A program made the position numbers and the translations under genes. The notes under the pieces were generated by a model, which searched no databases, was not told where the DNA came from, and saw only the letters and a list, made by a program, of their open reading frames with translations. A DNA stretch of 64,000 nt from Minisyncoccota bacterium (GTDB lineage Bacteria > Patescibacteriota > Minisyncoccia > Phycocordibacterales > UBA9973): NCBI GenBank assembly GCA_041661005.1, contig JBAZVG010000001.1, positions 114,116 through 178,115 on the forward strand, read 5' to 3'. Positions 474 through 57,223 of the stretch are shown piece after piece (within the stretch, counting starts at the first letter, position 1; each line of letters opens with the position of its first letter).

Positions 474-704
474 ATGACAAATATAGCAATAGCTGGTGCA
501 GATATACCTCGCCATTCTTTCTTCTTGGACGAAACCGATGAGCCAGGTATGGCTACGAGCCATCAGAAAAGAACCATTTACCGTCTCTTGTGCGAAGGAA
601 TGGAAGACGGAGAAGGTCGAGAAGTAAATATTAATCAGATTCCATACGTTTCAGAGGATGAAGCTAGAATATGGATTAACGAGCTCGAAAATTCTATTTG
701 GTAA
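474..704 (+). CDS. hypothetical acidic protein (76 aa)
   Basis: ORF-track ORF. A strong hairpin plus T-tract terminator follows immediately. Confidence 0.35.
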   Translation: MTNIAIAGADIPRHSFFLDETDEPGMATSHQKRTIYRLLCEGMEDGEGREVNINQIPYVSEDEARIWINELENSIW

Positions 705-757: not shown

Positions 758-967
758 CTACTTTAATTTTGAACGAGGAGATCTATTTACCGGCTTTAGA
801 CTCATTTTAATTTCCTGGGCTTTTGCCTGAACTCCTGCTACTGGTCTTTGAAGTTTCAAACCAATAACTCGAGTTGGCACTTTCCCTCCCATACTTTTTA
901 ATTGCTTTACTTCGGTAGGGGTCCAAGCTTGACCAGACCTTGCTATGTATTTTGGTAGTTTTGCCAT
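758..967 (-). CDS. hypothetical basic protein (69 aa)
   Basis: ORF-track ORF. Lys/Arg-rich, with no recognised motif. Confidence 0.3.
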   Translation of the reverse strand: MAKLPKYIARSGQAWTPTEVKQLKSMGGKVPTRVIGLKLQRPVAGVQAKAQEIKMSLKPVNRSPRSKLK

Positions 968-3515: not shown

Positions 3516-3692
3516 TTAGTTCTCTTTATTACTTTCGACAGCATATTTTATAATATCTAAATTGCAACTTTGATGTTCTTTGCACCACGCTTCACATTTT
3601 TCCGCCCATTCCCTTTCTTTATAGTATAAACCGCACTCAGGACATTGAAAGAGTTCCCCGTTGATTTTATTATTATCATTTTTAGAATTCAT
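3516..3692 (-). CDS. small zinc-ribbon protein (58 aa), not in the ORF track
   Basis: Hand-translated: MNSKNDNNKINGELFQCPECGLYYKEREWAEKCEAWCKEHQSCNLDIIKYAVESNKEN. CPxC...CxxxC pattern. Sits tightly between the ATPase and the next gene. Confidence 0.4.
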   Translation of the reverse strand: MNSKNDNNKINGELFQCPECGLYYKEREWAEKCEAWCKEHQSCNLDIIKYAVESNKEN

Positions 3693-3702
3693 ACATTTAT
3701 GT

Positions 3703-4443
3703 TTATGTTAATTTTTTCCAGGTAATATGCTCATATATACTCGACCATAAAAAACCGAAACTAAAAGCAAACAAGAGTTCCTCTAGTGGAATTCCAATAA
3801 CTAAAATTCCGGAAATGGCTTTAAGATTCCAAACCTGTTCAACATAACCAGGTGAAATTGCAATAAGTGTTAAAAAGTAGAAAAAATAAAGAATTAAAAA
3901 AATAAATGCGCTTGTAATCATTTTTTTCTTTAAATCTGGTCTGCAATACCATGTAGCTAGTCCACCAAGAATCATAGCAATAATTGCCGAATGCAAAGAA
4001 TTTAAATTTGTTGTAATTAAGAGTAAAATAAGAATTATTGGCGTGGATATAAGTATCCACATATGAAATTTATGCCTGGGTGAATGGTGATCTTTCATTG
4101 GCATAGGGATATCCTGCCTGTGAAAAATTTTATTGTATAAAATAATTGCAATACCTCCGATACCAAAAGAAAAAATCAAACTTTCTATATCGAATCCTGT
4201 TCGTAAGGTAAGATTAAATAAAGATGGCGGAGACCAATATGATGGCACAAAGAGGGGCTCAGTGAGACCAAGAAGCGATGTCCATAGACTAACTATCAGC
4301 ATCTCTTTTCTGGCCTTTTTAGAATCGAGAGAAGCATAAATAACTAGCCAAATCGCAACTAATATTAAGCTCCATATTAACCATATATATTGCATGTAAT
4401 TTATATTAAAGCTGCCAAGTAAAACTTCTGACAACATCACCAA
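3703..4443 (-). CDS. polytopic integral membrane protein (246 aa)
   Basis: Multiple hydrophobic helices. No catalytic motif recognised. Confidence 0.5.
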   Translation of the reverse strand: MVMLSEVLLGSFNINYMQYIWLIWSLILVAIWLVIYASLDSKKARKEMLIVSLWTSLLGLTEPLFVPSYWSPPSLFNLTLRTGFDIESLIFSFGIGGIAIILYNKIFHRQDIPMPMKDHHSPRHKFHMWILISTPIILILLLITTNLNSLHSAIIAMILGGLATWYCRPDLKKKMITSAFIFLILYFFYFLTLIAISPGYVEQVWNLKAISGILVIGIPLEELLFAFSFGFLWSSIYEHITWKKLT

Positions 4444-20247: not shown

Positions 20248-21978
20248 TTGTTAAAAACTATGAAAAAACAAGATGAAAAAATTAAATATGGTGAATACCT
20301 CAGAAAATCTTCCGAAGACGAAGATAGGCAGATTAATTCTATTGAAGATCAGCAACGCGAACTTGATGCAATAGCGTTAAAAGAAAAACTTAATATTGTA
20401 ATTAAATATCCTGGAGAATCTCAAAGTGCCCATCATCCTGGTAGGTCTATTTTTGCAGATGCAATTAAAGATATTGAACTGGGGAAAATAAATGCTCTTT
20501 TTGTCTGGCACGCTAATAGGCTTTCTAGAAATCCAATTGATACGGGAATGATTATTTATCTTATGGACATAGGAAAACTTAAGGAAGTTAAAACAACAAC
20601 TAGAACTTATTACAATACTTCCAGTGATAAACATTATTTAAGCCAGGAACTTAGTAACTCTAAGAAAGATAGCGATGATAAGAGTGAAGTGGTTAAAAGA
20701 GCATTGGAAGGACGCGCTATTCGTGGCCTTCCAAGTGGAGTCTCGAAAGTTGGTTTTCTAAATGACATGACAGAAGAAAAAGGCAATAGAAAATGGATTG
20801 TGGACAAAATTCGTTTTCCTCTCGTTAAACAACTCCTTGAAAGAATGCTAACTGGAAGATATTCTCCGGCACAAATATATAGATATGCAAAAGATGACTT
20901 AAAACTTACAACCACACCGAGAAAAAGAGAAGGTGGCAAACCTGTAGCTTTTTCATATGTTTATACATTATTGAGAGACCCCATTTTTGCAGGTTTCTTC
21001 TCCCATAATGGTAAAAGATACGAATTAGACAAAAGACTCCCTCGCGCTATAACTGAAGAAGAATATTGGAAAATACAGGCAATGCTTGGATCAAAAGGCA
21101 GACCACAACCCTCAAAACATGAAGGCCTGTATAACCATTTTCTATCTTGTGGAGAATGCAAGGGTCGCATGTCTCCCGATTTTAAATTTCAGTTAATATG
21201 TCCTGTCTGTAAATTGAAATTTTCCTGCATAAATATGGATAAATGCCCAAAATGTAAGACCAAAACGAATACAATGACCGATCCAACCTATTGTTCTTAT
21301 GTGTATTATTACTGCATCAATAATAAAAAACATAGATCAGTATGTCCATCTAGTACAATTGAACAAAAGAGAATTGAAACAGCTGTTTATGACAAATTTA
21401 CTAATGAAATCTGCATCAGTAAGGAACTTTCAGATTGGTGTTTGAAGAATCTTTCTATCATCAAAGACACGGAAATTCAAGATGAGTCAGCTATAAAAAC
21501 ATCACTAGATGAACAAGAAATTCAAGTGAAGAAAAAATTAAATAATCTACTTAGTTACAGAATTAAAAAGCAGGATATTACGTCAGAACAAGAAGAAATT
21601 TTCGAGGCTCAAGAGAAAGAATTACAGCAAGAATGGTCCGATATTAAGCAAAGAAAAAATGTCAAAATTGACTGGTATAGTGAAGCTGCCAAAGAATTTA
21701 ATTTAATGACTGAAATAGAAGATACCCTCAAAAATGGCACTCCTGCAGAGAAAAAAGAACTCTTTTATGAATTGCGTTCGAACCTAACTGTTAGCGAGAA
21801 AAACCTTATTGTTATCAACAGAAAATCAATAAATGCCTTCGCAGAATGTATCCTACGTGCTAAATCTGAAAACAGAGCGTTCGAACCTAGAAATAATTTT
21901 CCTAGCTTTACAAACAAAAGCTCAAAAGAAAAAACAGAGGTTTTCGCCTCTGTAATTCCTACTCTGCTCCGGGGGTAG
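20248..21978 (+). CDS. large serine recombinase (resolvase/invertase catalytic domain plus recombinase and zinc-ribbon domains)
   Basis: N-terminal YLRKSSEDEDRQINSIEDQQRE (catalytic Ser/Arg motif). CGECKGRM...CPVCK...CPKCKTK zinc ribbons. Coiled-coil C-terminus. The stop lies inside the tRNA-Asn 3' end. Confidence 0.85.
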   Translation: MLKTMKKQDEKIKYGEYLRKSSEDEDRQINSIEDQQRELDAIALKEKLNIVIKYPGESQSAHHPGRSIFADAIKDIELGKINALFVWHANRLSRNPIDTGMIIYLMDIGKLKEVKTTTRTYYNTSSDKHYLSQELSNSKKDSDDKSEVVKRALEGRAIRGLPSGVSKVGFLNDMTEEKGNRKWIVDKIRFPLVKQLLERMLTGRYSPAQIYRYAKDDLKLTTTPRKREGGKPVAFSYVYTLLRDPIFAGFFSHNGKRYELDKRLPRAITEEEYWKIQAMLGSKGRPQPSKHEGLYNHFLSCGECKGRMSPDFKFQLICPVCKLKFSCINMDKCPKCKTKTNTMTDPTYCSYVYYYCINNKKHRSVCPSSTIEQKRIETAVYDKFTNEICISKELSDWCLKNLSIIKDTEIQDESAIKTSLDEQEIQVKKKLNNLLSYRIKKQDITSEQEEIFEAQEKELQQEWSDIKQRKNVKIDWYSEAAKEFNLMTEIEDTLKNGTPAEKKELFYELRSNLTVSEKNLIVINRKSINAFAECILRAKSENRAFEPRNNFPSFTNKSSKEKTEVFASVIPTLLRG

Positions 21979-22038
21979 GGATCGAACCTACGACCAATCG
22001 CTTAACAGGCGACCGCTCTACCGCTGAGCTACCCCGGA
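21967..22038 (-). tRNA. tRNA-Asn (anticodon GTT)
   Basis: Hand-folded on the minus strand: TCCGGGG-TA-GCTC-AGCGGTA-GAGC-G-GTCGC-CTGTTAA-GCGAT-TGGTC-GTAGG-TTCGATC-CCTAC-CCCCGGA-G. 7/4/5/5-bp stems. No CCA encoded. Confidence 0.85.
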
Positions 22039-23300: not shown

Positions 23301-23672
23301 ATGCTCGTTCTCTCGCGTAAACTCAACCAAAGCATTGTCATCGATGGTCAGATCTTCGTGAAGATTCTCGATATCGATCGCTATGTCGTCAAACTAGGTA
23401 TCCATGCGCCCGCGCAAACATCGGCGCCCCGGGAGGAGTTTCTCGAACTCAACGAAAGCACCCTCATTGATGGTCAGATAGTGGTGAAGATTGTCTGCAT
23501 CGATCGCAGAACCGTCAAGCTGGGCGTCCAGGCGCCCGCGGAGGTCCCAGTTGATCGTGAGGAAGTTCATGAAAGGAAAATCAGGGAAAGGACGGGTCAA
23601 GAGGCAATCAACAGGAATAAGCCAGCAAGAGATGGGCTGGTTAAGTGTCCTTTTACAGGGGCACTGGGATGA
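23301..23672 (+). CDS. csrA: tandem-duplicated (single-chain) carbon storage regulator CsrA
   Basis: Repeat 1 MLVLSRKLNQSIVIDGQIFVKILDIDRYVVKLGIHAP...PREEF. Repeat 2 LNESTLIDGQIVVKIVCIDRRTVKLGVQAPAEVPVDREEV. Both match the CsrA consensus MLILTRR..E.I.IGD.I.V.VL...G..VRLGI.AP.EV.V.REE. Local GC is far above surrounding DNA. Confidence 0.75.
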   Translation: MLVLSRKLNQSIVIDGQIFVKILDIDRYVVKLGIHAPAQTSAPREEFLELNESTLIDGQIVVKIVCIDRRTVKLGVQAPAEVPVDREEVHERKIRERTGQEAINRNKPARDGLVKCPFTGALG

Positions 23673-25675: not shown

Positions 25676-25699
25676 CGAGGGTATTGTTTGGCAACTGAC

Positions 25700-26179
25700 A
25701 TGCAGAAGAAATCTACATTAATAAAAAATAAAAAAGGAAAAAAGAAGATAGTGATGGTCTCTGGAGGATTTGATCCTGTTCACATCGGCCATGTGCGCAT
25801 GTTTGAAGAAGCGAAAAAGCTTGGCGATGAGTTGGTGGTCGTCTTAAACAATGATAATTGGCTGAAATTAAAGAAGGGATATGCTTTTATGCCCGAACAC
25901 GAACGTAAAGAAATCATTGAGGCGTTTGAAGCAGTTGATCGGGTTATTTTAAGTGGTCATGAGGAAAACACAAAAGATATAAGTATTAGCAAAGAAATAC
26001 GAGCTCTTCGTCCACATATTTTTGCCAAAGGAGGTGATCGGCATGTTGGGAACATACCGTCTCCTGAAGTGTTGGTTTGCAATGAGATAGGTTGTGAAAT
26101 AGTGAATGATATTGGTTTTGGTGGTAAGGTTCAAAGTTCGTCGGACTTGGTAAAGAAAGCGCAGAAGAATAAAAAATAA
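25700..26179 (+). CDS. cytidylyltransferase-fold nucleotidyltransferase (RfaE domain II / glycerol-3-P cytidylyltransferase-like)
   Basis: VMVSGGFDPVHIGHVRMFEEAKKLGDELVVVLNND (HxGH motif) ... RPHIFAKGGD. The listed ORF begins at 25688 (TTG); the ATG is at 25700. Confidence 0.7.
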   Translation: MQKKSTLIKNKKGKKKIVMVSGGFDPVHIGHVRMFEEAKKLGDELVVVLNNDNWLKLKKGYAFMPEHERKEIIEAFEAVDRVILSGHEENTKDISISKEIRALRPHIFAKGGDRHVGNIPSPEVLVCNEIGCEIVNDIGFGGKVQSSSDLVKKAQKNKK

Positions 26180-26181
26180 AA

Positions 26182-26253
26182 CTTGTCCCGTACTAAATTT
26201 TTTGGCAAAACAAATGGTCAATATTATTAACAATTTAAAATTTTAGTACTGGG
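26182..26253 (+). repeat. 72-nt structured intergenic repeat, copy 1, abutting the start codon of the HAD gene
   Basis: Near-identical to 56549..56620. Internal inverted repeat GTACTAAATTTT...AAAATTTTAGTAC. Ends ...TACTGGG then ATG. Confidence 0.6.
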
Positions 26254-27048
26254 ATGAAAATTTCGAACTTTGAAAAACTTACAGATAAAGATTTGATTGT
26301 TTTTGACTTAGATGGAACTTTGACTGAGACTAAATCCAATTTAGAACAAGATATGTCTGAAGCGCTTACGTCCCTTCTTAAGGAAAAAAAAGTTGTTGTT
26401 ATTGGAGGCGGTAATTATAAACAGTTTAAAAAACAATTTATAAAATATCTTAAATGTCCACGTCATTTGTTGTCACGTCTTTTCCTTTTTCCTACCACAG
26501 CAACCTCTTTCTATCGTTATAGTAATGGTTGGAAAAAAGTGTATGAATTTGTGCTTTCGAAGCGTGATATAATAATGATTAGAAAAGCGTTTCGCGATGT
26601 GTTTAAAGAAATAAATTACATTCAGCCGAAAAAAGTCTACGGCAAAGTTTTAGAAGATAGAGGAACACAGTTTACATTTTCCGCGCTTGGACAAGACGTC
26701 GTCACTATACTTGGGAAAAATGCTGGTGTGCGTTTAAAAAAAGAATGGACTCGTAAAAACACTCCATTGAAATTAAAAATCGCGGCTTTAATGCAAGAGC
26801 GCCTGCCACATCTAGAAGTTCATGCTGCTGGCTTTACCTCAATTGATATAACAAAAAAAGGTGTTGATAAACAATACGGAATGAATCAGATTAAAAAATA
26901 TCTTCATATATCCATCAAAAATATGCTTTTTATTGGTGATGCTATTTTTCCTGGTGGTAATGATTATGCGGTAACCAAAACTGGTGTGGATTACATGAAG
27001 GTTAAAGGACCTAGAGAAACTAAAGCAATAATTCGCAATATCTTATAA
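26254..27048 (+). CDS. HAD-superfamily hydrolase (HAD-IIB / phosphomannomutase-like)
   Basis: FDLDGTLTETKSN motif I, C-terminal GDAIFPGGNDYAV. Confidence 0.65.
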   Translation: MKISNFEKLTDKDLIVFDLDGTLTETKSNLEQDMSEALTSLLKEKKVVVIGGGNYKQFKKQFIKYLKCPRHLLSRLFLFPTTATSFYRYSNGWKKVYEFVLSKRDIIMIRKAFRDVFKEINYIQPKKVYGKVLEDRGTQFTFSALGQDVVTILGKNAGVRLKKEWTRKNTPLKLKIAALMQERLPHLEVHAAGFTSIDITKKGVDKQYGMNQIKKYLHISIKNMLFIGDAIFPGGNDYAVTKTGVDYMKVKGPRETKAIIRNIL

Positions 27049-39804: not shown

Positions 39805-39848
39805 TTTTCAATAATAGCACTTTTTTATGTTTTTGATATAATATGAAT

Positions 39849-40922
39849 ATGCGAAAAATAAAAATTGGAATTAACGGGTTTGGCAGGATAGGTAGAGCTT
39901 TTTTGAAAGTGGCTTGGGATAGACCAGAGATTGAAATAGTGGCGGTGAATGATTTGGGGTCCGTCGAAAACATGGCTTACTTACTTAAATACGATAGTGT
40001 GTATAGAGAATGGACTCATCCCGTGCGAGCAAGCTCTAACGGGACAAGTGAAAATTATATCGAGATAGGTGATAAGAAGGTCAAAGTTTTGGCAGAGAAA
40101 GATCCGAGCAGGCTTCCATGGAAAGATTTGGGTGTGGATGTGGTTGTGGAATCAACAGGACTTTTTACAACATATGACAAGGCAAAAGCGCATCTAGATG
40201 CCGGCGCAAAAAAAGTTGTCATTTCTGCTCCCTTTGCCGCGCCGAAGCTTGGAGCGGAGGTGGGCGCCTATGCCGAAGGCTACGACGTCCCGAAGGGTGA
40301 GACAATTTTGCTTGGTGTGAATGAAGAAAAGTTCGGCACTTGTGATATTACTTCCAATGCATCCTGCACCACGAATGCAGCTTCGCCATTCATTGCGATT
40401 TTAGACGAAGCTTTAGGTATCGAGAAAGCAATTTTAAATACCGTGCATGGTTACACCGCGAGCCAATCCATCGTCGATGGACCAAATAAAAAAGATTTTC
40501 GTGAAGGTCGCGCGGCAGCGCAGAATATCGTGCCTTCTTCTACTGGTGCGGCTATCGCTGTGACGAAAGCATTTACGAAACTTGAAGGTCTTTTTGATGG
40601 TATCTCGATGCGAGTGCCGGTGCCAGCGGGGTCAATCGTTGACATTACTTTCATTTCCAAGAAAGACACAACCAAAGAAGAAGTAAATGAAATTCTCAAA
40701 AAAGCATCAAAGGAAAAAAGATGGGAGGGGATTTTTAGTGTTACAGAAGAAGATCTTGTTTCAAGTGATATCCTAGGTAGCCCGTATGGATCTATCGCTG
40801 ACTTGAAATTAACTCGGGTTGTCGGAGGAAATTTGATAAAAGTAATGGGTTGGTATGACAACGAAATGGGGTATACATATACGCTCGTTGAACATGTAAT
40901 TAAAGCAGGGAGATTAATCTAA
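39849..40922 (+). CDS. gap: glyceraldehyde-3-phosphate dehydrogenase (type I)
   Basis: IGINGFGRIGR, SNASCTTN active site. Extended -10 TGATATAAT (39834..39842) sits 6 nt before this ATG, so the leaderless start at 39849 is preferred over the listed 39843. Confidence 0.85.
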   Translation: MRKIKIGINGFGRIGRAFLKVAWDRPEIEIVAVNDLGSVENMAYLLKYDSVYREWTHPVRASSNGTSENYIEIGDKKVKVLAEKDPSRLPWKDLGVDVVVESTGLFTTYDKAKAHLDAGAKKVVISAPFAAPKLGAEVGAYAEGYDVPKGETILLGVNEEKFGTCDITSNASCTTNAASPFIAILDEALGIEKAILNTVHGYTASQSIVDGPNKKDFREGRAAAQNIVPSSTGAAIAVTKAFTKLEGLFDGISMRVPVPAGSIVDITFISKKDTTKEEVNEILKKASKEKRWEGIFSVTEEDLVSSDILGSPYGSIADLKLTRVVGGNLIKVMGWYDNEMGYTYTLVEHVIKAGRLI

Positions 40923-41112: not shown

Positions 41113-41190
41113 TATGGTATGACAACGAAATGGGGTATACGTACACATTAGTGGAGCATGTTATTAAAACTGGTGGGAGTATAAAATAAT
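41113..41190 (+). repeat. degenerate duplicate of the gap 3' end (encodes WYDNEMGYTYTLVEHVIKTGGSIK*)
   Basis: About 80% nt identity with 40849..40922 over roughly 60 nt, in the same frame. Confidence 0.6.
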
Positions 41191-41192
41191 TT

Positions 41193-41441
41193 ATGAAAAT
41201 ACAAAAGAACATCGTTATTTCTTTTATAATGTTATTAATTCAGTTTGCCATTATTTGGATTCCAGAATTCTTAAGTTTTACGATACCGCAAAAAATAGGT
41301 ACGATTTTATTTTGGATTTTTGGAGTAATATCTCTTATCTTCGCTCTGATTTCTCTCATTAAAAGGGAGGCCGCATCAGGAGTTGGAATTATACTTTTGG
41401 AATTTCTGTTCTTCTACTGGTTTGTATTGATGGGTAGGTAA
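41193..41441 (+). CDS. small membrane protein (82 aa)
   Basis: Three hydrophobic segments. Confidence 0.4.
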   Translation: MKIQKNIVISFIMLLIQFAIIWIPEFLSFTIPQKIGTILFWIFGVISLIFALISLIKREAASGVGIILLEFLFFYWFVLMGR

Positions 41442-46417: not shown

Positions 46418-47050
46418 ATGTCAGACGAAGAAACCAAAAAACCTGAAGAAAATAAACCCCTCGAGGTTGCTCGGGACGATTCTACTGAATCGGATGATTC
46501 AGAAGTTGTGGATGTTGTCTTTAACGAAGACGGGGAGGAAGATCTCAAGAAAACTCTTAAGAAACTAAGGGAAGATTTGAAAGTATGCAAAAAAGAAAAA
46601 GAAGAATATCTAACTGGCTGGCAAAAAGAACGGGCGGAGTTTGCTAATTATAGAAAAGGGGAAGATGATCGAAAAGCTATGTTTTCAGAATCAATGCGCG
46701 AACGCATACTGACCAGATTTCTGACTGTATCGGATAGTTTCAACATGGCTTTTGCCAATAAAGAGGCGTGGGAAAAGGTAGATGAAAATTGGAGAAAAGG
46801 CGTAGAATATATTTATGGACAGATGAATACTGTGTTTGAAGAATATGGGGTAAAAGAAATAGGAGAGGTCAATGAAACATTTGATCCAAATATTCATCAG
46901 TCCATGGAAGTTACACCGACTGACAAAAAAGAAAATGACCATAAGGTCTCGACTGTAATCCAAAAGGGATACAAGCTCGGCGAACGTGTCATACGTCCGG
47001 CGAGAGTGAATGTTTATGAATACAGAGAAGAACATAAGTCTGAAAAATAA
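46418..47050 (+). CDS. grpE: nucleotide exchange factor GrpE
   Basis: WQKERAEFANYRKG (like the GrpE QAEFENYRKR segment). C-terminal FDPNIHQSMEV...QKGYKLGERVIRPARVNV. Confidence 0.8.
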   Translation: MSDEETKKPEENKPLEVARDDSTESDDSEVVDVVFNEDGEEDLKKTLKKLREDLKVCKKEKEEYLTGWQKERAEFANYRKGEDDRKAMFSESMRERILTRFLTVSDSFNMAFANKEAWEKVDENWRKGVEYIYGQMNTVFEEYGVKEIGEVNETFDPNIHQSMEVTPTDKKENDHKVSTVIQKGYKLGERVIRPARVNVYEYREEHKSEK

Positions 47051-48689
47051 TATCTGTGAGCATTGCAAACAGAATTTCTCGATAGGAGAAGGAGAATTTT
47101 CTTTATATCAAAAAGTTGGCATCGAATTGCCGACTTTGTGCTTTTTCTGTCGAATAAAATTACATTTTTCTTTTTGGTATTTCGGAAAATTTAGGAAAAG
47201 TAAATCAGATCTTTCGGGGGAAAGTTTGATTACTGTTTTGCCGGAAAAAAATAAATATCCTATATATACTTTAAATGAATGGCATGGTGATAAGTGGAAT
47301 CCGATGGATTACGGAATGGATTACAATCCAGACACTTCGTTTTTAGAACAAATTCAAAATTTACAGGAAAAAGTCCCTCATCCTCACCAAAATGGATCTA
47401 AAAATACAAACTGTGATTATTGCGATGATGTTTGGAATTCTAAAAATTGCTATTTATCTCGCTCGATGGAGAAATGTGAAGATTTGTTTTATTCATACCG
47501 TAATTTAGGAGTTAAGAATTCCATAGATATGAATGTTTGTTTTGATTCAGAAAAATGCTATGACTGCGGAGACTGCCACCATTCATACAAACTTTTTTAC
47601 TCAAGACACTCACGAGATTGCATAGATTCAAGTTTTTTATACGACTGTCGTAATTGCCAAAATTGTTTTATGTCTTGGAATCTTCGAAATAAACAGTACT
47701 GTATAGAAAACAAGCAATATACTAAAGAAGAATATGAAGAAAAACTAAAATCATATAATCTAGAATCCTATAAATCAATTCAGTTTTTTAAAAAACGTTT
47801 TGAAGAAATAGCACAGAAAGAAGTAGTTCATAGGCAAAATTTCAATTTTAAAAATTACAATTCAGACGGAAATTATCTTTTTGATACGAAAAATTGTCAC
47901 AATTGTAATACAGTCAATGAATCCGAAGATTGTCGAAATTGCGTGAGAGGAATTAGTGAAAAATCTAATATTGATGCGAATGGCGTTTGGTATTCTGAAT
48001 TGGCGGGCAATTGCGTTGGCTGTGTTAATGCCTACGCTATTAAATACAGCATGTGGTCTTCCTCTCGTTATTCTGAATATTTAGATTTATGTATTGAATG
48101 CGAATATTGCTTTGGTTGCGTCGGCTTAAAGAAAAAGAAATATTGTATTCTAAACAAGCAATATGACAAACAAGAATATGAAACTCTGAAAAATAAAATC
48201 ATTGGAGATATGAAAAATAGCGGAGAATACGGCAAGTTTCTGCCTTATTCTATGAGCGCCGGACCTTTTAATTTTTCTACCAGTTTTCTTTATTTTCCGG
48301 AAACCAAAAAAGAAGATATCTTAAAACTCGGCGGTTATTGGGAGGATGTTAACGAAAGTCATATAGACGGAATGCTTACAAGTGAACTGCCTGATGATAT
48401 AAAAGATGTACCAGATATCATTATCACTCAAGCGCTTATTTGTCCGGAAACTGGCTGGCGGTTTAATATTGCTCAAAATGAGCTTATTTTTTACAAGGAA
48501 AACAATATTCCACTTCCACGATATCATTTTGATGTTCGCACAAAAAATAGTTTAAAATATTTAACTATTTTGCAATCCTATCCATATATCTGTTTCTATT
48601 GCAAGAAAGATATAGAAGCATATTATTTACCGGAGTGGGGATATGAGAAAATTGCCTGCGAAGAATGTTATAAACAAAATATAGCTTGA
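47010..48689 (+). CDS. cysteine-rich repeat protein, paralog 1 of 4 (559 aa), with N- and C-terminal zinc-ribbon modules
   Basis: N-terminal CEHCKQNFSI...LCFFCR. Many CxxCxxC(F/V)GC repeats. C-terminal NELIFYKENNIPLPR..C..CK. The start overlaps grpE's end in another frame, so the true start is uncertain. Confidence 0.7.
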   Translation: MFMNTEKNISLKNNICEHCKQNFSIGEGEFSLYQKVGIELPTLCFFCRIKLHFSFWYFGKFRKSKSDLSGESLITVLPEKNKYPIYTLNEWHGDKWNPMDYGMDYNPDTSFLEQIQNLQEKVPHPHQNGSKNTNCDYCDDVWNSKNCYLSRSMEKCEDLFYSYRNLGVKNSIDMNVCFDSEKCYDCGDCHHSYKLFYSRHSRDCIDSSFLYDCRNCQNCFMSWNLRNKQYCIENKQYTKEEYEEKLKSYNLESYKSIQFFKKRFEEIAQKEVVHRQNFNFKNYNSDGNYLFDTKNCHNCNTVNESEDCRNCVRGISEKSNIDANGVWYSELAGNCVGCVNAYAIKYSMWSSSRYSEYLDLCIECEYCFGCVGLKKKKYCILNKQYDKQEYETLKNKIIGDMKNSGEYGKFLPYSMSAGPFNFSTSFLYFPETKKEDILKLGGYWEDVNESHIDGMLTSELPDDIKDVPDIIITQALICPETGWRFNIAQNELIFYKENNIPLPRYHFDVRTKNSLKYLTILQSYPYICFYCKKDIEAYYLPEWGYEKIACEECYKQNIA

Positions 48690-48749
48690 GGATTTTAATT
48701 TATACCTGCCCGCAATGCTACGCATAGCGTTGCAGGCGGGTGAAAAAAT

Positions 48750-50465
48750 ATGAACAAAGACTGTAAGAATTGTAAGACAACTTTTGAAATAACCAATGAA
48801 GATATGGGTTTTTACGAACGTATTAAAGTTCCACCGCCGACGTGGTGTCCGATATGTCGCCAACTTCGTCGTTATGCATGGAGGAACGAACGAGTTTTGT
48901 ATAGACGAAATTGCGACCTTTGCGGGAAGAGCACAGTGACCATTTATTCTCCGAACAAGCCATACAAAGTTTACTGCGTAGATTGCTGGTGGGGAGATGA
49001 TTGGGATTTTTCTTCATACGGACGGGATTTTGATTTTTCCCGATCTTTTTTTGAGCAATTTGCTGAATTACAGCGTGAAGTGCCTCGCATGGCGTTCTTG
49101 AACAAGAGAAGCGTTAATTCTGAATACACAAACCATTCTGGAGATAATAAGAATGTTTATCTTTCTTTTACAACTTTTTACAGCGAGAATGTTATGTATA
49201 GCACTTGGATAAGGACGTCGCAAGATTGTATGGATTGCAGTTTTATTTATGATAAAGGGGAACGTCTGTATGAAACGATGGATTCTCGTTATTCGTATCA
49301 ATGTCAATATGGGATCTTTTTAAAAGATTGTTCAACTTGTTATTATTGTTATGATTGTCATGGGTGCAATGAATGTTTTATGTCTTCGAATTTACGCAAC
49401 AAAAGTTATGTTTTTAAAAATAAACAATACTCTCGTGAAGAATATCTAAAAAAGAAAAAAGAATATGAATTATGTTCTTTTGTGACGAGAGAAGGATTGA
49501 ATAAAGAATTTAAAGATTTATTGGAACAAAGCGCTATTCATCGTTATGTTGTCAGCGAAAGGAGTATTAATTCCAGTGGATCTTTGCTCTATGATTGCAA
49601 AAACGTCATTGATTCTTTTGAGATGGATAGAAGCGAGGATTGTAAATATGTCTATGGAGGTATTGAAACAAAAGATTGCATGGATCTATATCATGTGGGT
49701 TGGAATACAGAACTTTGTTACGAGTGTCATGGATGTACGCGTCTTTCCAACTGTCAATTTTGTCACTTATGTTATGACGGTATGAATATTTTTTATTCCG
49801 ATACTTGTCAGAATAGTCAAAATCTTTTTGGCTGTGTAAGCGTGAAAAAAGGCGAGTATATGATTTTCAATAAAAAATATAATAAAACTGATTATGAAGT
49901 TTTGAAAGCAAAAATTATTGAACATATGAAAAAGACGGGGGAATATGGAGAATTCTTTCCACCAGAAATCGCTCCGGTGTATTACAATGAGACACAAGGT
50001 AACCTCTATATGCCTATGAAAAAAGAAGAAATTTTAGCAAAAGGCTGGCATTGGGAAGACAATATCCCCGGAACTTTTGGCAAGGAGACAATCTCAAGTG
50101 CAGATATTCCCGACAGAATAGAAGATGTGCCAGATAGTTATTTGACTGAAATTTTTTCTTGTATGGATTGCTCTAAAAATTACAACATAACCCAAAATGA
50201 GCTTATTTTTTATAGGAAAGAAAATATTCCATTTCCAAGACGATGTCCAAATTGTCGTTATGGAAGAAGATTTGACCTCCGACCGATGAGAAAACTTTGG
50301 CACCGTAAATGTATGTGTGACCCGACTTCGCAAAGCTCTGACGGGCGTGGTAAAAATCACTTTCATGGAGAGAAAAAATGTGAAGTTGAATTTGACACCT
50401 GTTATGCGCCGGATAGGTCGGAAAAAGTGTACTGTGAGACCTGTTATAACAAAGAAGTTTATTAA
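48750..50465 (+). CDS. cysteine-rich repeat protein, paralog 2 (571 aa)
   Basis: CKNCKTTFEITNEDMGFYERIKVPPPTWCPICR. Central CYYCYDCHGCNEC. C-terminal NELIFYRKENIPFPRRCPNCR...VYCETCYNKEVY. Confidence 0.8.
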   Translation: MNKDCKNCKTTFEITNEDMGFYERIKVPPPTWCPICRQLRRYAWRNERVLYRRNCDLCGKSTVTIYSPNKPYKVYCVDCWWGDDWDFSSYGRDFDFSRSFFEQFAELQREVPRMAFLNKRSVNSEYTNHSGDNKNVYLSFTTFYSENVMYSTWIRTSQDCMDCSFIYDKGERLYETMDSRYSYQCQYGIFLKDCSTCYYCYDCHGCNECFMSSNLRNKSYVFKNKQYSREEYLKKKKEYELCSFVTREGLNKEFKDLLEQSAIHRYVVSERSINSSGSLLYDCKNVIDSFEMDRSEDCKYVYGGIETKDCMDLYHVGWNTELCYECHGCTRLSNCQFCHLCYDGMNIFYSDTCQNSQNLFGCVSVKKGEYMIFNKKYNKTDYEVLKAKIIEHMKKTGEYGEFFPPEIAPVYYNETQGNLYMPMKKEEILAKGWHWEDNIPGTFGKETISSADIPDRIEDVPDSYLTEIFSCMDCSKNYNITQNELIFYRKENIPFPRRCPNCRYGRRFDLRPMRKLWHRKCMCDPTSQSSDGRGKNHFHGEKKCEVEFDTCYAPDRSEKVYCETCYNKEVY

Positions 50466-50517
50466 AATGTTTACTTTATCCAACTAAATTACTTTACTTA
50501 ACTAAAGTAGACAAAAA

Positions 50518-52284
50518 ATGGAATATAAGAATGAAAATAGAATATGTCAAAATTGCAAGAAAGACTTCACCATCGAGCCGGAGGATTTTAATTTTTACGA
50601 AAAGATGAAAGTTCCTCCACCGACTTTTTGTCCACTTTGTCGGGCAGAAAGAAGAGCGACTTTTAGAAATGAGAGAAAACTTTTTAAGGTCAAGGATGTC
50701 TTGACCGGGAGAGGTATCTTCTCACTTTTTCCTGATGAGGCTGGAAACAAATCTACCACGGAGGAAGAGTGGTTCAGTGATAATTTTGATGCTATGGAGT
50801 ATGCTCGGGATTATGATTTTTCAAAAAACTTCTTTGAACAACTGTTTGAATTAAAAAAAGAAGTGCCGGTTTTTTCTTTGAGGGTAGAATTTATGGTGAA
50901 TAGTCCATATAGCGCAAATGCGACTGCTCTTAAAAACTGCTACCTATGTTTTAATTCTAATACTTCTGAAGATTGCATGTATGGTAATGCCACTGATTTT
51001 AGCAAAGATTGTATCGACAATTCTCATATCAGTCAATCGGAGCGATGTTATGAATGTTTTTGGTTGAGACATTGTTACCAATGTTATTTTACAATAATGT
51101 GTGGAGATTCACATAATATGTGGTTTTCTCGAGATTGTCATGGGTGTAATGATTGTTTTGGGTGTATAAATTTAACAAAAGCGTCGTATTGTATTTTTAA
51201 CAAGAAATATTCTAAAGAGGATTATCAAAATAAAATTGCAAAGATGGGCTTAAATACAATTTCTGGATTAAAAAAGGCGCGAGAAAAGTCCAGAATTTTT
51301 TGGCAGAGTCATATAAGACGATATCAACAAGGTACAAAAAATTTAAACTCAACTGGTTCGTATGTAACAGATTGCAAAAATGTGAATGACAGTTTTTTAA
51401 TACGAGAAGGGGAAAATATGAAATACTGCCAGTATTTACAAGTTCCGAGAAACAAAGATTGTTATGATGCTTTTGCTTGGGGAGCAAACATGGAAATGCA
51501 TTATGAGACTTGTCTTTCTGGTGGAAATACTTTCAATATGAAATTTTGCGATAATTGTTGGCCAAATTGTAGAAACCTTGAGTATTGTGCGCACATGTTC
51601 AGTTCTTCTGATTGTTTTGGTTGTGTTGGATTAAAGAAAAAACAATATTGTATTTTCAACAAGCAGTATGAAAAAGAAAAATATTTTGAGATGGTTGAAA
51701 AAATAAAAAAACACATGGATGAAGTACCCTATTATGATAAAAAAGGCAATATGTATAAATATGGGGAATTTTTCCCGATCGAACATTCACAATTTGGATA
51801 TAATAATTCGACCGCTATTCAGTATTTTTCAATGACAAAAGAGAAAGCAAAAGAAAACGGTTATTTATGGATTGATGTTCCTCGTGGTGAATATAAAATT
51901 ACAAAAAAAGCATCAGAACTTGTGGAATCAATTGACGGAGTTACTGATCAAATTTTAAAAGAAGTTGTCGAATGTGAAAATTGTAAAAATCCGTATCGTA
52001 TTTTAGAAAACGAATTTATATTTTACAAAAAAGAGAATCTTCCACTTCCGACAATGTGTCATGAATGTAGATTTGAGAGAAGAATCGCGGATAGACTGAA
52101 ATTTGAATTATATGAAAGATCTTGCATGTGTACTGGGAAAACTGATAACACTGGAATTTATGAAAATACTACAAAGCATATTCATGGTAATGAACTCTGT
52201 GGGGAAGAATTTAAAACAGGATATTCTCCCGACCGCCCAGAAATAGTTTACTGCGAGAAATGTTATCAGCAGGAGGTTTACTAA
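50518..52284 (+). CDS. cysteine-rich repeat protein, paralog 3 (588 aa)
   Basis: MEYKNENRICQNCKKDFTIEPEDFNFYEKMKVPPPTFCP... ends SPDRPEIVYCEKCYQQEVY. Confidence 0.8.
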   Translation: MEYKNENRICQNCKKDFTIEPEDFNFYEKMKVPPPTFCPLCRAERRATFRNERKLFKVKDVLTGRGIFSLFPDEAGNKSTTEEEWFSDNFDAMEYARDYDFSKNFFEQLFELKKEVPVFSLRVEFMVNSPYSANATALKNCYLCFNSNTSEDCMYGNATDFSKDCIDNSHISQSERCYECFWLRHCYQCYFTIMCGDSHNMWFSRDCHGCNDCFGCINLTKASYCIFNKKYSKEDYQNKIAKMGLNTISGLKKAREKSRIFWQSHIRRYQQGTKNLNSTGSYVTDCKNVNDSFLIREGENMKYCQYLQVPRNKDCYDAFAWGANMEMHYETCLSGGNTFNMKFCDNCWPNCRNLEYCAHMFSSSDCFGCVGLKKKQYCIFNKQYEKEKYFEMVEKIKKHMDEVPYYDKKGNMYKYGEFFPIEHSQFGYNNSTAIQYFSMTKEKAKENGYLWIDVPRGEYKITKKASELVESIDGVTDQILKEVVECENCKNPYRILENEFIFYKKENLPLPTMCHECRFERRIADRLKFELYERSCMCTGKTDNTGIYENTTKHIHGNELCGEEFKTGYSPDRPEIVYCEKCYQQEVY

Positions 52285-52336
52285 AATGTTTACTTTATCC
52301 AACTAAATTACTTTACTTAACTAAAGTAGATAAAAA

Positions 52337-54094
52337 ATGGAATATAAGAATGAAAATAGAATATGTCAAAACTGCAAGAAAGATTTCACCATCGAGCCGG
52401 AGGATTTTAATTTTTACGAAAAGATGAAAGTTCCTCCACCGACTTTTTGTCCGGAGTGCAGATTGCAACGCAGAATGGTCTGGCGTAATGATTGGCACTT
52501 ATTTAAGAAAAAAGATGCACGAACAGGTGAAGAGATTTTCTCCTTTTTACCCGAAGAAAGTCCTGCAAAAATTTATGACAGGGATTACTGGATTTCTGAC
52601 GCCTGGGATCCTATGAAACATGGTCGTGATTATAATTTTTCTAGACCATTTTTTGAGCAATTTAAAGAATTACTCTATGAAGTGCCCCTTCCAGCTCATT
52701 CCATGTTTGATATAGTTAATTGTCAGTATTGTACTAATGCTAATAATATTAAAGGCTGTTATCTGGTTCGAGGAGCTTCTTTTACAGAAGATTCCGCTTA
52801 TCTTATTTGGGATCAGGAATCAAAGCAATGTCTTGATAGTCATATGACTAATAAATGTGAATTGAGTTATGGAAATGTTGACACTTCCACTTGTTATAGA
52901 ACTTTTTTCTCAGTTGATTGTGAAAGTTCTCAAGAATTAATTTTATGTAAAGATTGTGTAGGATGTAATAGTTGCATCGCTTCAATTAGTTTACGAAATA
53001 AATCGTATTGTATTTTTAATGTTCAATATACGAGAGAAGAATATTTAGAAAAATTGAAATCTTTTCACCTAGGTTCAGACAAAGCTTTTCAGAATTTTAA
53101 AAATAAAGCATATAAACATTGGTTGAAATATCCGCAGAAGTTTATTCATAGTCGTCAGAATGTAAATGTTTCCGGAGATTATATTTATGAATCCAAAAAT
53201 GCCCGTGGTTGTTATAGGGTAAGGGAATTAGAAGACTGTAAGTTTGTACAGAATATTTTGATTGGTCCAGCTAAAGATTGTTATGACTATGCGAATTTTG
53301 GCGACAATGCAGAACTTATTTATGAATCGTTAATTGTTGGAAGGGGAGTATCTAATGTCAAATTCTCCACTCAAGCAGTTTCTAATATAAAAAATCTCAC
53401 ATATTGCGTTTTTTGTTTTCCTTCGAATTCAGATTTGTTTGGTTGTGTTTCTTTGCGTAATAAACAGTATTGTATTTTTAATAAACAATACACAAAAGAG
53501 GAATACGAAAAACTTATTCCAAAAATTATTAAACACATGAGTGAAATGCCATTTATTGATAAAAATGGGAGGGTCTATAAATATGGAGAATACTTTCCAA
53601 GTGAATTAACCTATCTTCCTTATAGAGCAACTGCTTCTTATGAATGGTTTCCATTGGATGAGCAAGAGGCAAAGGAAAAAGGATTTTTGTGGTATGAAAC
53701 CGCAAAACAAAATCATAAAATTACTTTAAAAAATAAAGACATTCCAGATGATATTAAAGATGTTGATGAAAGTATCCTTAACCAAATCATTGAATGTGTC
53801 CACCAAGAATCTTGCGAGCATGAATGTACCGGCGCTTTTCGGGTAATCAAAATGGAATTTGATTTTTTGAAGAGAATGAATATTCCATTACCTCGTCTAT
53901 GCACAAATTGTCGTCATTATGAACGTCTTGTGCTTAGGAATCCGCCGAGGTTTTATAATCGAGAGTGTATGTGTAATAAAAACAACCATACACATCATCA
54001 AGGAAAATGCACTACAGAATTTGAAACTTCATATGCTCCAGATAGGCCAGAAATAGTCTACTGCGAGAAATGCTACCAGCAGGAGGTTTATTAG
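52337..54094 (+). CDS. cysteine-rich repeat protein, paralog 4 (585 aa)
   Basis: First 39 aa and last 19 aa identical to paralog 3. Central region diverged. Confidence 0.8.
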   Translation: MEYKNENRICQNCKKDFTIEPEDFNFYEKMKVPPPTFCPECRLQRRMVWRNDWHLFKKKDARTGEEIFSFLPEESPAKIYDRDYWISDAWDPMKHGRDYNFSRPFFEQFKELLYEVPLPAHSMFDIVNCQYCTNANNIKGCYLVRGASFTEDSAYLIWDQESKQCLDSHMTNKCELSYGNVDTSTCYRTFFSVDCESSQELILCKDCVGCNSCIASISLRNKSYCIFNVQYTREEYLEKLKSFHLGSDKAFQNFKNKAYKHWLKYPQKFIHSRQNVNVSGDYIYESKNARGCYRVRELEDCKFVQNILIGPAKDCYDYANFGDNAELIYESLIVGRGVSNVKFSTQAVSNIKNLTYCVFCFPSNSDLFGCVSLRNKQYCIFNKQYTKEEYEKLIPKIIKHMSEMPFIDKNGRVYKYGEYFPSELTYLPYRATASYEWFPLDEQEAKEKGFLWYETAKQNHKITLKNKDIPDDIKDVDESILNQIIECVHQESCEHECTGAFRVIKMEFDFLKRMNIPLPRLCTNCRHYERLVLRNPPRFYNRECMCNKNNHTHHQGKCTTEFETSYAPDRPEIVYCEKCYQQEVY

Positions 54095-56094: not shown

Positions 56095-56544
56095 ATGTTG
56101 CATGAACAAATAAAAAGTGGAATAAAAGAGGCGATGATAGCAAAAGATGCTTTGCGTCTGAAAGCATTTCGAGCGATGTCCGCTGCTTTTACCAATGAAC
56201 TTGTCGCAAAGAATCGAAAACCTCAAGAAATGCTCAAAGATGAAGAAGCAATTGCAGTAATCACTAAACTTGCAAAACAAAGAAAAGACTCTATTGAGCA
56301 ATTCAAAAAGGGAAATAGGGAAGATTTGGTGAAGGAGGAAGAAGCTGAGCTTGCCATTCTTGAAACTTATTTGCCGAAGATGATGGATAAAAGTGAAGTT
56401 GAAAAAATTGCTCGTCGAAAAAAGGAGGAATTGTCTATCACGGATGCTACTAAAAAGGGCATGTTGATGTCTGCTTTGATGAAGGACTTGAAAGGTAAAG
56501 CTGACGGAAGTCTAGTCAAAGAAGTCGTAGAAGGTTTATTCTAA
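56095..56544 (+). CDS. yqeY: GatB/YqeY-domain protein
   Basis: IKEAMIAKDALRLKAFRAMSAAF... Extended -10 TGTTATAAT lies 6 nt before the ATG. Confidence 0.7.
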   Translation: MLHEQIKSGIKEAMIAKDALRLKAFRAMSAAFTNELVAKNRKPQEMLKDEEAIAVITKLAKQRKDSIEQFKKGNREDLVKEEEAELAILETYLPKMMDKSEVEKIARRKKEELSITDATKKGMLMSALMKDLKGKADGSLVKEVVEGLF

Positions 56545-56548
56545 GTTG

Positions 56549-56620
56549 CTTGTCCTGTACTAAATTTTTGAGTGAAACAAATGACCATAATTATTAACAA
56601 TTTAAAATTTTAGTACTGGG
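56549..56620 (+). repeat. 72-nt structured intergenic repeat, copy 2, abutting the start codon of the DedA-like gene
   Basis: CTTGTCCTGTACTAAATTTTTGAGTGAAACAAATGACCATAATTATTAACAATTTAAAATTTTAGTACTGGG, then ATG. Confidence 0.6.
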
Positions 56621-57223
56621 ATGCATACAGTTAATCTTTTAACCAGCTTAGTTGAGAATCATCAGATCTTGGCGTATGCGGTTATTTTTTTAGGACTTAT
56701 TTTCGAAGGTGAGTTTATTGTCATTTCTGTCGGGATTTTGGCGCATCTCGGCGCTTTAAATTTTTGGTTTTCTTTCCTTTTTATTATTCTGGGCGCGATG
56801 TCTAAAACTTTTTTAGGATATGCATTAGGGGAATTTTTGTTTAAAAAATTTAACCATCATAGATTTTTTCAGTACATTCAAAAACGGGTATACAATACTT
56901 TACCTAAATTCAAAATCAAACCCTTTTGGTCAGTTTTTGTTTCCAATTTCATAGTGGGAGTGAATTATTTGGTGGTTATATTTTGCGGTTATGAAAAGAT
57001 AGATTATAAAAAATTTTTAAAAGCGGAGATTTTGGGTAAAATGATTTGGGCTCCGTCTTTGTTGTTTCTAGGATATTTTTTTGGATACACTGCGTTTCAT
57101 ATCAGTCGTGAAATCTGGAAATTTTCGATGGTGATTGTAATTCTTTTCGTATTATTTATCTTTTTTGACAAATTAATCAGCTGGGCGTATGGTATTTTTG
57201 AAGAATTTTATGACAAAGACTAA
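56621..57223 (+). CDS. DedA/VTT-family membrane protein
   Basis: Multiple TM helices, GYALGEFL-type motif. Assignment is tentative. Confidence 0.5.
   Translation: MHTVNLLTSLVENHQILAYAVIFLGLIFEGEFIVISVGILAHLGALNFWFSFLFIILGAMSKTFLGYALGEFLFKKFNHHRFFQYIQKRVYNTLPKFKIKPFWSVFVSNFIVGVNYLVVIFCGYEKIDYKKFLKAEILGKMIWAPSLLFLGYFFGYTAFHISREIWKFSMVIVILFVLFIFFDKLISWAYGIFEEFYDKD

Follow-up and report, generated by a model that had tools for sequence, protein, structure and literature searches.

A lineage-wide palindromic element set exactly at start codons in Candidatus Nomurabacteria, with a proposed role in translation start and mRNA processing

A 64,000-nucleotide (nt) stretch of the genome of a Minisyncoccota bacterium (GenBank assembly GCA_041661005.1, contig JBAZVG010000001.1, positions 114,116 to 178,115, forward strand; below, the window) contains two look-alike palindromic segments, each ending directly at a start codon, one in front of a HAD-superfamily hydrolase gene (copy 1) and one in front of a DedA-like membrane protein gene (copy 2). 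Both copies belong to a lineage-wide family of palindromic elements of about 72 nt in Candidatus Nomurabacteria/Paceibacterota, within the Candidate Phyla Radiation (CPR), and the element is a discrete unit standing between the ATG and either the +1 of a leaderless promoter or a base 1–4 nt after an upstream stop codon. With moderate confidence, we propose that this unit acts in cis at the RNA level, in translation start and mRNA processing.

An earlier note on this DNA had described the two segments as about 90% identical, and both were found where it had placed them (26182–26256 and 56549–56623), each ending in ATG. The two agree in 66 of 75 bases (88%, the ATG included), and the nine mismatches within the 72 nt all fall in the apical part. 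The end motifs of 21–22 nt occur exactly twice each in the window, compared with 0.00–0.01 expected from 100 shuffles. A covariance model run with filters off scored copy 2 at 84.7 bits and copy 1 at 81.4 bits (27–28 bits on the reverse strand) and gave no hit elsewhere in the window. The inverted repeat GTACTAAATTTT / AAAATTTTAGTAC named in the note is present, its arms being about 36 nt apart and not about 45 nt, and the assignment of the downstream genes was borne out by matches to PF08282 and PF03332 (copy 1) and to PF09335 (copy 2). In both cases a co-directional gene ends immediately upstream, its TAA stop codon (26177–26179 and 56542–56544, respectively) lying 1 nt before the conserved first base of the element, A(0), in copy 1 and 3 nt before the corresponding position in copy 2.

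The species-representative genomes of GTDB were scanned with the pattern GTACTAAATTTT-N28-58-TTTTAGTAC, which gave at least 119 matches; the nhmmer scores of the matches listed are bimodal and indicate about 118 true copies in about 1 Mb. Nearly all hosts of the matches listed are metagenome-assembled genomes (MAGs) of Candidatus Nomurabacteria/Paceibacterota, some being labelled Saccharibacteria or Patescibacteria. Copies with exact arms were found in at least 57 genomes, with up to six per genome among the matches listed, and DNA retrieved irrespective of the element carries about eight copies per 140 kb, which suggests tens of copies per genome. Conservation is equally high in the flanks, which the pattern left free (left, tA-C-Y-TGTCCC; right, Y-GGG-ATG), and in the arms that it fixed. 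The possibility that only two copies exist, at random positions, is thereby removed, and a simple local duplication is refuted, as the window holds only two copies but at least 118 are present in at least 57 genomes at a fixed start-codon phase.

Two loop types, A (...UGAUUACGGGGCAUAAAGAUAAAGAUUAUUAAUU...) and B (...UGAGUAAAACAAAUGACCACUAUUAUUAACAAUU...), coexist in most genomes; type A is the commonest, and both window copies are of type B. A subfamily with different arms, variant 2 (GUUAGAAA / UUUCUAAU), was found at loci L006, L025, L026, L046, L133, and L072 (L-numbers denote loci of relatives' genomes). With Rfam 15 at the gathering threshold, the window yields a tRNA-Asn only and no family for the element, and in E-value mode the best scores within 26100–26320 are 12–17 bits against thresholds of 51–95. 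In the literature on start signals, RNA motifs, and miniature inverted-repeat transposable elements (MITEs) of Nomurabacteria, Parcubacteria, Patescibacteria, and CPR, no description of the element was found, and the family is apparently undescribed. To our knowledge, the single-nucleotide placement at the start codon, the inclusion of the AUG in a helix, the conversion of leaderless starts into structured leaders, and the spread over at least 57 CPR species have not been described together. Four matches in IMG/VR viral contigs were rejected as chance hits, since they are without the CCC or GGGATG flanks and have wrong lengths. Separately, two independent short-read contigs of the HAD gene (L001 and L002) end within the element, which is consistent with a repeat that collapses the assembly graphs of these MAGs.

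The placement of the element relative to genes is exact. In 116 of the 119 matches listed, an ATG that opens a long open reading frame (ORF) lies exactly 4 nt past the right arm. Among the matches listed, the downstream proteins represent 81 unrelated families, mostly housekeeping ones, including FtsA, PilC, Obg, NusG, RpoD, SecY, ClpB, DnaB, MetK, Tgt, UvrC, ribosomal proteins S2/S9/S14/S16/S21/L5/L15, ATP synthase subunits, and tRNA synthetases, which do not make up a metabolic regulon. Directly before 81 of the 117 copies among the matches listed, a gene of the same direction comes to its end, and in 74 of these 81 intercistronic copies its stop codon lies 0–8 nt, mostly 1–4 nt, before A(0). 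The frames of upstream stop and ATG are unrelated (30/28/23), which rules out frameshifting or readthrough. The remaining 36 listed copies have no adjacent upstream gene, and 15 of them carry TANNNT 5–8 nt before A(0), with an extended TG in nine and a full TTGACA-17-TGnTAGAAT in several.

Shine-Dalgarno (SD)-like words stand at four of the 65 starts of the window, compared with 8.2% at random ATGs, and the window genes do not use Shine-Dalgarno sequences. A -10 hexamer lies 5–8 nt upstream at 13 of the 65 starts (background 7.8%), and seven of these 13 read TGnTAnAAT + 6 nt + ATG, which at such first genes indicates a leaderless mRNA, while the internal genes of the window have A/U-rich upstream sequences.

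Filled and empty alleles could be compared at three sites, using 43 loci obtained in a protein-based metagenome scan for DedA relatives and chosen regardless of the element. The YqeY-DedA junction, i.e., the site of copy 2, is occupied in only about six of 41 relatives (in full in L146, as a variant in L154, and as the right half in L124, L125, and L162; L026 and L114 were added from the genome scan), and most relatives are empty, reading TAA + 3–15 nt + ATG; L130 and L149 keep an ACTTGT/ATTTGT remnant. At the MYG1-Obg junction, empty alleles read ...gcggTAGAATcgtaaga followed by ATGGCA and filled ones ...gcggTAGAATcgtaaga followed by ACCTGTCCC...TACTGGG and then ATGGCA (L147 compared with L114, and L149/L153 with L134). 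The Obg start is filled in L026, L114, L134, L151, and L124/L077, four of the five filled alleles sharing the rare loop subtype ATGTCG, and the window's own Obg gene is empty. The third site precedes an RNase T-like exonuclease gene, where the window, L150, and L154 are empty and read TGnTAAAATagcact followed by ATG, and L026 and L133 have a variant-2 element at the identical flank. At all three sites the 71–72 nt element is the sole difference between the filled and the empty state, and no target-site duplication was detected in the allele comparisons (L147/L114, L149/L134, and the window and L150 against L026 and L133), with at most a 1-nt 'A' ambiguity.

It should be stressed that the empty Obg and exonuclease alleles carry TGnTAnAAT + 6–7 nt + ATG, and that the filled ones have the same flank, followed by the element. 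The distance from the -10 hexamer to +1 is established promoter geometry, and the normal spacing, which in the empty alleles falls on the A of the ATG, falls on A(0) in the filled ones, so that we infer that the whole element is transcribed as a 5' leader, with A(0) as the transcription start.

Element presence is scattered over the DedA tree, yet all copies at the DedA site are of loop type B. Such site-specific subtypes argue for old, vertically inherited copies that were later lost many times, either cleanly or in part; filled alleles may also have recombined with empty ones, or the element may have re-inserted at specific sites. The loop identity is 0.768 within genomes and 0.759 between them, i.e., any two of the copies listed are about 76% identical, and copies at orthologous genes are slightly closer (0.794 compared with 0.755, p = 0.002). 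As there is no excess similarity within genomes, concerted evolution and recent intragenomic copying were rejected. The retained copies remain about 76–90% identical despite their patchy presence among relatives, and the constancy of loop identity irrespective of genome, together with the closer orthologous copies, shows purifying selection on retained copies rather than recent copying.

The sequence of the element folds into a helix of 22–23 bp, in which UGUCCC-GUACUAAA-UUUU(GAUUA) faces (UAAUU)AAAA-U-UUUAGUAC-U-GGGAUG. In the type A consensus, (U)GUCCC pairs with GGGAU(G), GUACUAAA with UUUAGUAC, and UUUUGAUUA with UAAUUAAAA, interrupted by one U/U 1x1 loop and one bulged U or C and closed by a 23-nt A-rich apical loop. 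Plus-strand RNA of copy 1 folds at -17.5 kcal/mol (z = -3.3) and that of copy 2 at -18.7 kcal/mol (z = -4.0), the reverse strand folding worse; predictions for the stem come to about -20 kcal/mol at 37 °C (-17.5 to -21), fall to between -32 and -37 in the cold (10 °C; about -35 for the type A consensus), and rise to between -13 and -16 when warmed to 45 °C. An alternative 5' hairpin, CCCGUA/UACGGG, was considered as a switch and rejected, since it exists in type A only and is predicted at -7.4 kcal/mol against -20 for the main fold. The UGU at 26184–26186 (copy 1) and 56551–56553 (copy 2) pairs with the AUG start codon. The suggestion that a structure occludes the start is well founded in this respect, the helix including the AUG and being both conserved and covarying. 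The statement that the right arm overlaps the ribosome-binding region and the start codon holds for the latter, which lies inside the stem, and not for the former, since the window genes are without SD usage.

Covariation in the family alignments exceeds that of all 500 shuffles. Of the alignment cells, 97.2–97.9% are paired, compared with at most 52% when the register is slid by 1–3 columns. Pair variation is scarce, partly since the search fixed the arms. Where only one side of a pair changes, the change interconverts G.U with A-U or G-C in 30 of 30 cases, which favours the plus strand as single-stranded nucleic acid. Position 5 on the left side pairs with the base that opens the start codon, as U-A in 113 of the copies listed and as C-G in the two GUG-start copies (L016 and L057). 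Variant 2 differs by three consecutive compensatory pairs within the arms and keeps the ACUUGUCCC and GGGAUG ends; RNAalifold and covariance-model alignments misplaced its arms, and these three pairs were read directly from the sequences and not from pair-count tables. No extension of the helix into codon 2 was observed (Y2 and N+4 are uncorrelated, p = 0.33), and the helix stops at the G of AUG.

Thus, it may be proposed that the element is transcribed with the downstream gene and that the plus-strand RNA hairpin buries the start codon, UGU:AUG forming the last three pairs. The hairpin would then be a post-transcriptional gate, with an AUG usable only once the helix has been opened. Since the host initiates without SD sequences, at leaderless or unstructured A/U-rich starts, such a gate would be the most likely function. 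With a predicted stem of about -20 to -35 kcal/mol, the AUG should not be spontaneously accessible, so an active opening would be needed. At intercistronic copies, a ribosome terminating 1–4 nt upstream would unwind the base of the helix (translational coupling by unfolding). At all copies, including those on transcripts that start at A(0), the helix could be opened by a double-strand-specific cleavage of the RNase III type, and the mRNA left by a cut near its base would have no leader or almost none, like the messages that the host already translates. In other bacteria a 5'-terminal stem protects mRNA from 5'-end-dependent decay, and by analogy a 5'-terminal stem with 2–3 unpaired bases would offer such protection here as well. 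The RNase III step specifically is put forward tentatively, by analogy, as a possibility rather than an expectation. The helix has the length of an RNase III signal (22–23 bp with the 1x1 loop and one bulge), the cleavage itself being predicted only, and a gene for RNase III is present in L036, recognized by the signature ERLEFLGD in an ORF that contains HNERLEFLGDAVLEL. CPR bacteria have been reported to retain rnc, RNase J, and PNPase (PMC12641178).

An RNA-level role is also favoured by locus L074, in which a short hairpin, GUGUCCCGUAGUGAGCUUUGCUCUACUACUGGGAUG, comes after a cobalamin riboswitch (RF00174, 42.9 bits) and has the base module and AUG of the element; this hairpin (UGUCCCGUA...UACUGGGAUG) forms the 3' part of the riboswitch. 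Other short hairpins of this kind were observed in L008, L048, L064, and L094, some of them followed by T-runs. In the window itself, a terminator-like hairpin (CTTGTCCCGTATCAAGC-TTTG-TTTTGGTTCGGGAT, then TGCTTTTTT) has the base module GUCCCG/CGGGAU as in the element and precedes a leaderless gene that resembles L25/Ctc on inspection of its N terminus. The short base-module hairpins, including the latter, are probably a separate class.

Several observations weigh against a role in translation start and mRNA processing. The arm sequence itself is near-invariant, beyond what a plain hairpin requires, which implies a sequence-specific partner (a protein, a nuclease, or a transposase), the invariance in the main sample being partly imposed by the search pattern. 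A recognizable -10 hexamer at the right distance is present in only about 30% of the copies listed, and in a few cases the copy stands behind a terminator-like hairpin and no promoter can be seen, as would fit a promoter inside the element. The closest relative, L122, whose DedA is 93% identical, is without the element, most orthologous junctions are empty, and the element is dispensable. The allele of L063/L124 retains the right half only and is still well conserved. Finally, the transcription start sites, a processing of the RNA, and an influence on translation are predictions.

The need for a sequence-specific partner, together with the filled and empty alleles, brings in another explanation, namely that the element is selfish palindromic DNA (REPIN, MITE, or IS200/IS605-derived) that homes just 5' of start codons (3' of CAT on the other strand) and has no host function, the host tolerating it because its hairpin does no harm or is taken out of the RNA, and its sequence being conserved for its mobilizing enzyme. 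We regard this as somewhat unlikely. Clean differences of 71–72 nt between identical flanks at three sites, patchy presence on the DedA tree, tens of copies per genome (about eight per 140 kb of unbiased DNA), arms that form terminal inverted repeats, partial-deletion remnants in L130/L149 and L124, and conservation of sequence and not of structure alone would all be natural for such an element, and the covariation of position 5 with the start codon is also expected from the guide-target pairing of a Y1 transposase. Genes similar to Y1 transposases or RAYTs (REP-associated tyrosine transposases) are present in two element-bearing genomes. However, the gene of L102 (PF01797, 36 bits) has inverted ATCGTTAGGTCTTGCCTAACGAT hairpins (ATCGTTAGG...CCTAACGAT) on its flanks, which are another palindromic repeat of these genomes and unrelated to the element, and a RAYT/Y1 transposase was rejected as the mobilizer on account of these unrelated ends; no element lies within 400 nt of the gene of L034, and a search of 1.15 Mb gave no IS200/IS608 homologue, a small sample that makes this a weak negative. 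Apart from the missing cognate transposase, selfish insertion is opposed by the lack of a target-site duplication and of excess similarity among copies within a genome. The uniform type B copies of the DedA site and the ATGTCG subtype in four of five Obg copies indicate old vertical copies and not repeated recent insertion, and old copies are still 76–90% identical and hence under selection in place. Moreover, none of the 119 matches listed lies at another, neutral intergenic position.

We consider it clearly unlikely, though conceivable, that the element is a mobile, start-codon-homing hairpin that inserts at the +1/ATG junction of leaderless and coupled genes and survives because a host double-strand RNase excises it from the transcript, regenerating a leaderless mRNA. 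If true, the element could be called a leader parasite that is 'RNase-spliced', or else a domesticated device placing many housekeeping genes under one nuclease-dependent switch in CPR bacteria that lack SD usage.

The copies without a visible promoter raise the question of a portable promoter cassette, in which an internal -10 hexamer, TAAAAT, 12 nt before the ATG would give a near-leaderless transcript and the arms would be the operator of a DNA-binding regulator. The hexamer is kept in about 108 of the 117 copies listed, the type B motif ATGACC-16-TAAAAT matches in 9 of 12 positions, some copies stand directly after terminator-like hairpins, 81 of the 117 copies listed have no separate intergenic space for a promoter, and the half-copy alleles keep exactly the promoter-proximal half. 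However, scans of copies 1 and 2 revealed no convincing promoter and no terminator; no sigma-70-like site was scored in copy 1 and only the 9/12 match in copy 2, so that the shared promoter cassette of the earlier note is poorly supported. The commonest type, A, has neither a -35 hexamer nor a TG extension, and the 12 nt from TAAAAT to ATG differ from the 6–7 nt of the host's leaderless promoters. The presence of canonical promoters immediately upstream, with +1 at A(0), would be an odd coincidence for a self-contained promoter, and a DNA operator leaves the G.U-type variation and the pairing of the AUG unexplained. The conserved TAAAAT is also part of the stem. Taking these points together, we hold a promoter cassette to be highly unlikely. 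As an observation apart, the promoter of an element-bearing gene that looks TrpR/YerC-like by eye, in L037 and L041, holds a perfect 16-bp palindrome, ACTAAAGTACTTTAGT, which shares the words ACTAAA, GTAC, and TTTAGT with the arms.

Near-invariant arms could likewise reflect binding by a global RNA-binding protein. At its 3' end, AGUACUGGGAUG, the element resembles RUACARGGAUGU, the CsrA consensus obtained by systematic evolution of ligands by exponential enrichment (SELEX; PMC4347634), and the window encodes a CsrA protein (PF02599, two domains, 3e-28) with a GGA-rich leader. Nevertheless, the ACA that is 100% conserved in the SELEX consensus reads ACU or ACC in the element, GGGAUG has its GGA paired with UCCC and not placed in a loop, a second GGA occurs in some type A loops only, and a search of 1.08 Mb from at least 57 genomes that carry the element, which is a weak test, gave no csrA. 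In the window, this gene adjoins a large serine recombinase gene and a tRNA gene, which suggests an island. The probability of a CsrA site therefore appears very slight to us. As for the csrA ORF itself, its two tandem CsrA domains make it effectively a fused dimer; its leader is AAGGAAAGGAAGG, it looks by eye more G+C-rich than the DNA around it, and the region may be an integrated island.

An RNA thermometer, which would melt to expose the start codon at higher temperature, had also been suggested, and the AUG is indeed occluded by a stem that has G.U pairs, a U/U mismatch, and a bulge; a sub-threshold match to a thermometer family in Rfam (15.6 bits against 51.5 needed, E = 5.4) may be added. 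This idea is hardly credible, as the stem, at the energies predicted above for 37 °C and 10 °C, is too stable and lacks the marginal stability of a thermometer, the hosts are organisms of groundwater and sediment, and the genes served are constitutive housekeeping genes.

Compared with known systems, the element would work most like an RNase III or translational-coupling leader hairpin and looks most like a REP/REPIN or Correia-type repeat. With the REP/BIME repeats of E. coli and the REPIN-RAYT systems of Pseudomonas, it shares short hairpin palindromes in tens per genome with a conserved master sequence, variable presence at orthologous sites, co-transcription with neighbours (predicted here), and long persistence in a lineage. 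However, REPs lie mostly 3' of genes, whereas all of the copies listed abut a start codon in one orientation, and the sequence is conserved over at least 57 species, the RAYT-like gene examined being flanked by an unrelated hairpin; neither flanking of such a gene by the cognate element nor a genome-specific master sequence was found. The earlier comparison with a MITE stands insofar as a palindromic unit is repeated in many copies in 5' untranslated regions, the copies are dispersed, orthologous sites are filled or empty, and terminal inverted repeats are present (CCCGTACTAAATTTT pairs with AAAATTTTAGTAC(T)GGG), and fails in that there is no target-site duplication and, in the small sample, no related transposase sharing the ends. 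An integron attC site does not fit, since in the arms (GTACTAAA...TTTAGTAC; in variant 2, GTTAGAAA...TTTCTAAT) the order of the core-like words is reversed relative to RYYYAAC...GTTRRRY.

The Correia/NEMIS elements (CREE) of Neisseria are about 100–155 bp long, have a TA duplication, create promoters, bind IHF, and lie at variable distances from genes, whereas the element has 72 nt, no duplication, and a place exactly at the ATG. Their mRNA hairpins are reported to bind RNase III and to be cleaved or protected by it, with altered expression of the genes beside them (PMC2649163). Inverted-repeat elements beside genes and mRNA hairpins are common to both, the transcription of the element here being a prediction. 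In phage T7 early mRNA and the lambda N leader, hairpins cleaved by RNase III separate cistrons and free an occluded initiation region; like the element, these hairpins stand in leaders or between cistrons, measure about two turns of helix, and have a bulge or a small internal loop. In contrast, the family resides on the chromosome in many copies, each gained or lost as a whole, and it occludes the AUG and not an SD sequence, its cleavage being putative. Thermometers (fourU, ROSE) and the expression platforms of riboswitches similarly sequester the start region in a stem, but the stem of the element is far more stable, has no ligand-binding aptamer, and serves diverse housekeeping genes. Finally, putative mobile promoters and Rickettsia palindromic elements are homologous short cassettes at many unrelated genes, placed precisely with respect to the coding sequence; unlike these, the element has no convincing internal promoter and, among the copies listed, never lies inside an ORF. 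The coordinates of the features discussed, and of a few further features of the window, were collected in Table 1.

Table 1. Coordinates of element copies, helices, neighbouring genes, and other features (window positions unless a locus is named).
Feature	Position	Strand	Details
Element copy 1, loop type B	26181..26253	+	begins with A(0), the conserved first base (26181); ends with the G that precedes ATG
Copy 1 helix, 5' strand	26184..26203	+	UGU-CCC-GUACUAAA-UUUU...; minimum free energy (MFE) and centroid fold
Copy 1 helix, 3' strand	26237..26256	+	AAAA-U-UUUAGUAC-U-GGG-AUG; bulged U at 26250; start codon 26254–26256 within the helix
HAD-superfamily / phosphomannomutase-like hydrolase gene, downstream of copy 1	26254..27048	+	PF08282 6e-15, PF03332 5e-9
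Cytidylyltransferase-like gene, upstream of copy 1, co-directional	25688..26179	+	PF01467
Element copy 2, loop type B	56548..56620	+	position 0 is G, not A; CCU for CCC gives a U.G pair
Copy 2 helix, 5' strand	56551..56569	+	MFE and centroid folds identical
Copy 2 helix, 3' strand	56604..56623	+	start codon 56621–56623 included
DedA/VTT-domain membrane protein gene, downstream of copy 2	56621..57223	+	PF09335
YqeY-like gene, upstream of copy 2, co-directional	56095..56544	+	PF09424; own leaderless-type promoter TGtTATAAT + 6 nt + ATG
Obg gene, empty	start 58177; site 58130–58176	+	
RNase T-like exonuclease gene, empty	55159–55938	-	
Exonuclease empty site	55939–55950	-	TGtTAAAATagcact, then ATG
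Starts considered in the window, examples	25001, 31079, 35784, 36532-, 46418, 54097-, 55159-, 56095, 63546		
Half-copies, CTATTATTAACAATTTAAAATTTTAGTACCGGG then ATG	L063 ~526–571	-	YqeY reading frame runs into the right half
Half-copies, CTATTATTAACAATTTAAAATTTTAGTACCGGG then ATG	L124/L125/L162, upstream of 2501		YqeY reading frame runs into the right half
Contig ends within the element	L001 1–23; L002 1–53		
Y1 (IS200-like) transposase gene	L102 2262–2921	+	best NCBIfam match 'REP-associated tyrosine transposase'
Y1 (IS200-like) transposase gene	L034 7021–7776	+	best NCBIfam match 'REP-associated tyrosine transposase'
Cobalamin riboswitch and short hairpin	L074 1732–1908	-	
Terminator-like hairpin with base module	63497–63541	+	precedes L25/Ctc-like gene, ATG 63546
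Palindrome in promoter of TrpR/YerC-like gene	L037 ~3690–3722; L041 ~840–873		
csrA ORF	23301–23672	+	
Large serine recombinase gene	20248–21978	+	
tRNA-Asn	21966–22038	-	
Four tandem paralogous genes	47010–54094	+	~560–590 amino acids, repeated Cys-rich motifs; the 45 nt upstream of the paralogues at 50518 and 52337 are near-identical, one base apart
Duplicated 3' end of gene 39843–40922	40851–40909 and 41115–41173	+	83% identity; second segment stands before small ORF 41193–41441

CPR/Patescibacteria have not been brought into culture, and next to nothing is known of the signals that govern their gene expression; the window shows a start-site grammar without SD sequences and largely leaderless. 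Onto this grammar the element adds a further layer, giving structured leaders to dozens of housekeeping genes in each genome, in at least 57 species, whose starts would otherwise be leaderless or tightly coupled, and as a repeat it would account for assembly breaks in these MAGs. If the element is selfish, it would be a mobile element that targets start codons with single-nucleotide precision and leaves no duplication, implying a new mechanism of insertion and excision. If the hairpin gates translation or is processed, as we propose, it would represent a lineage-wide layer of post-transcriptional control and a new family of structured RNAs.

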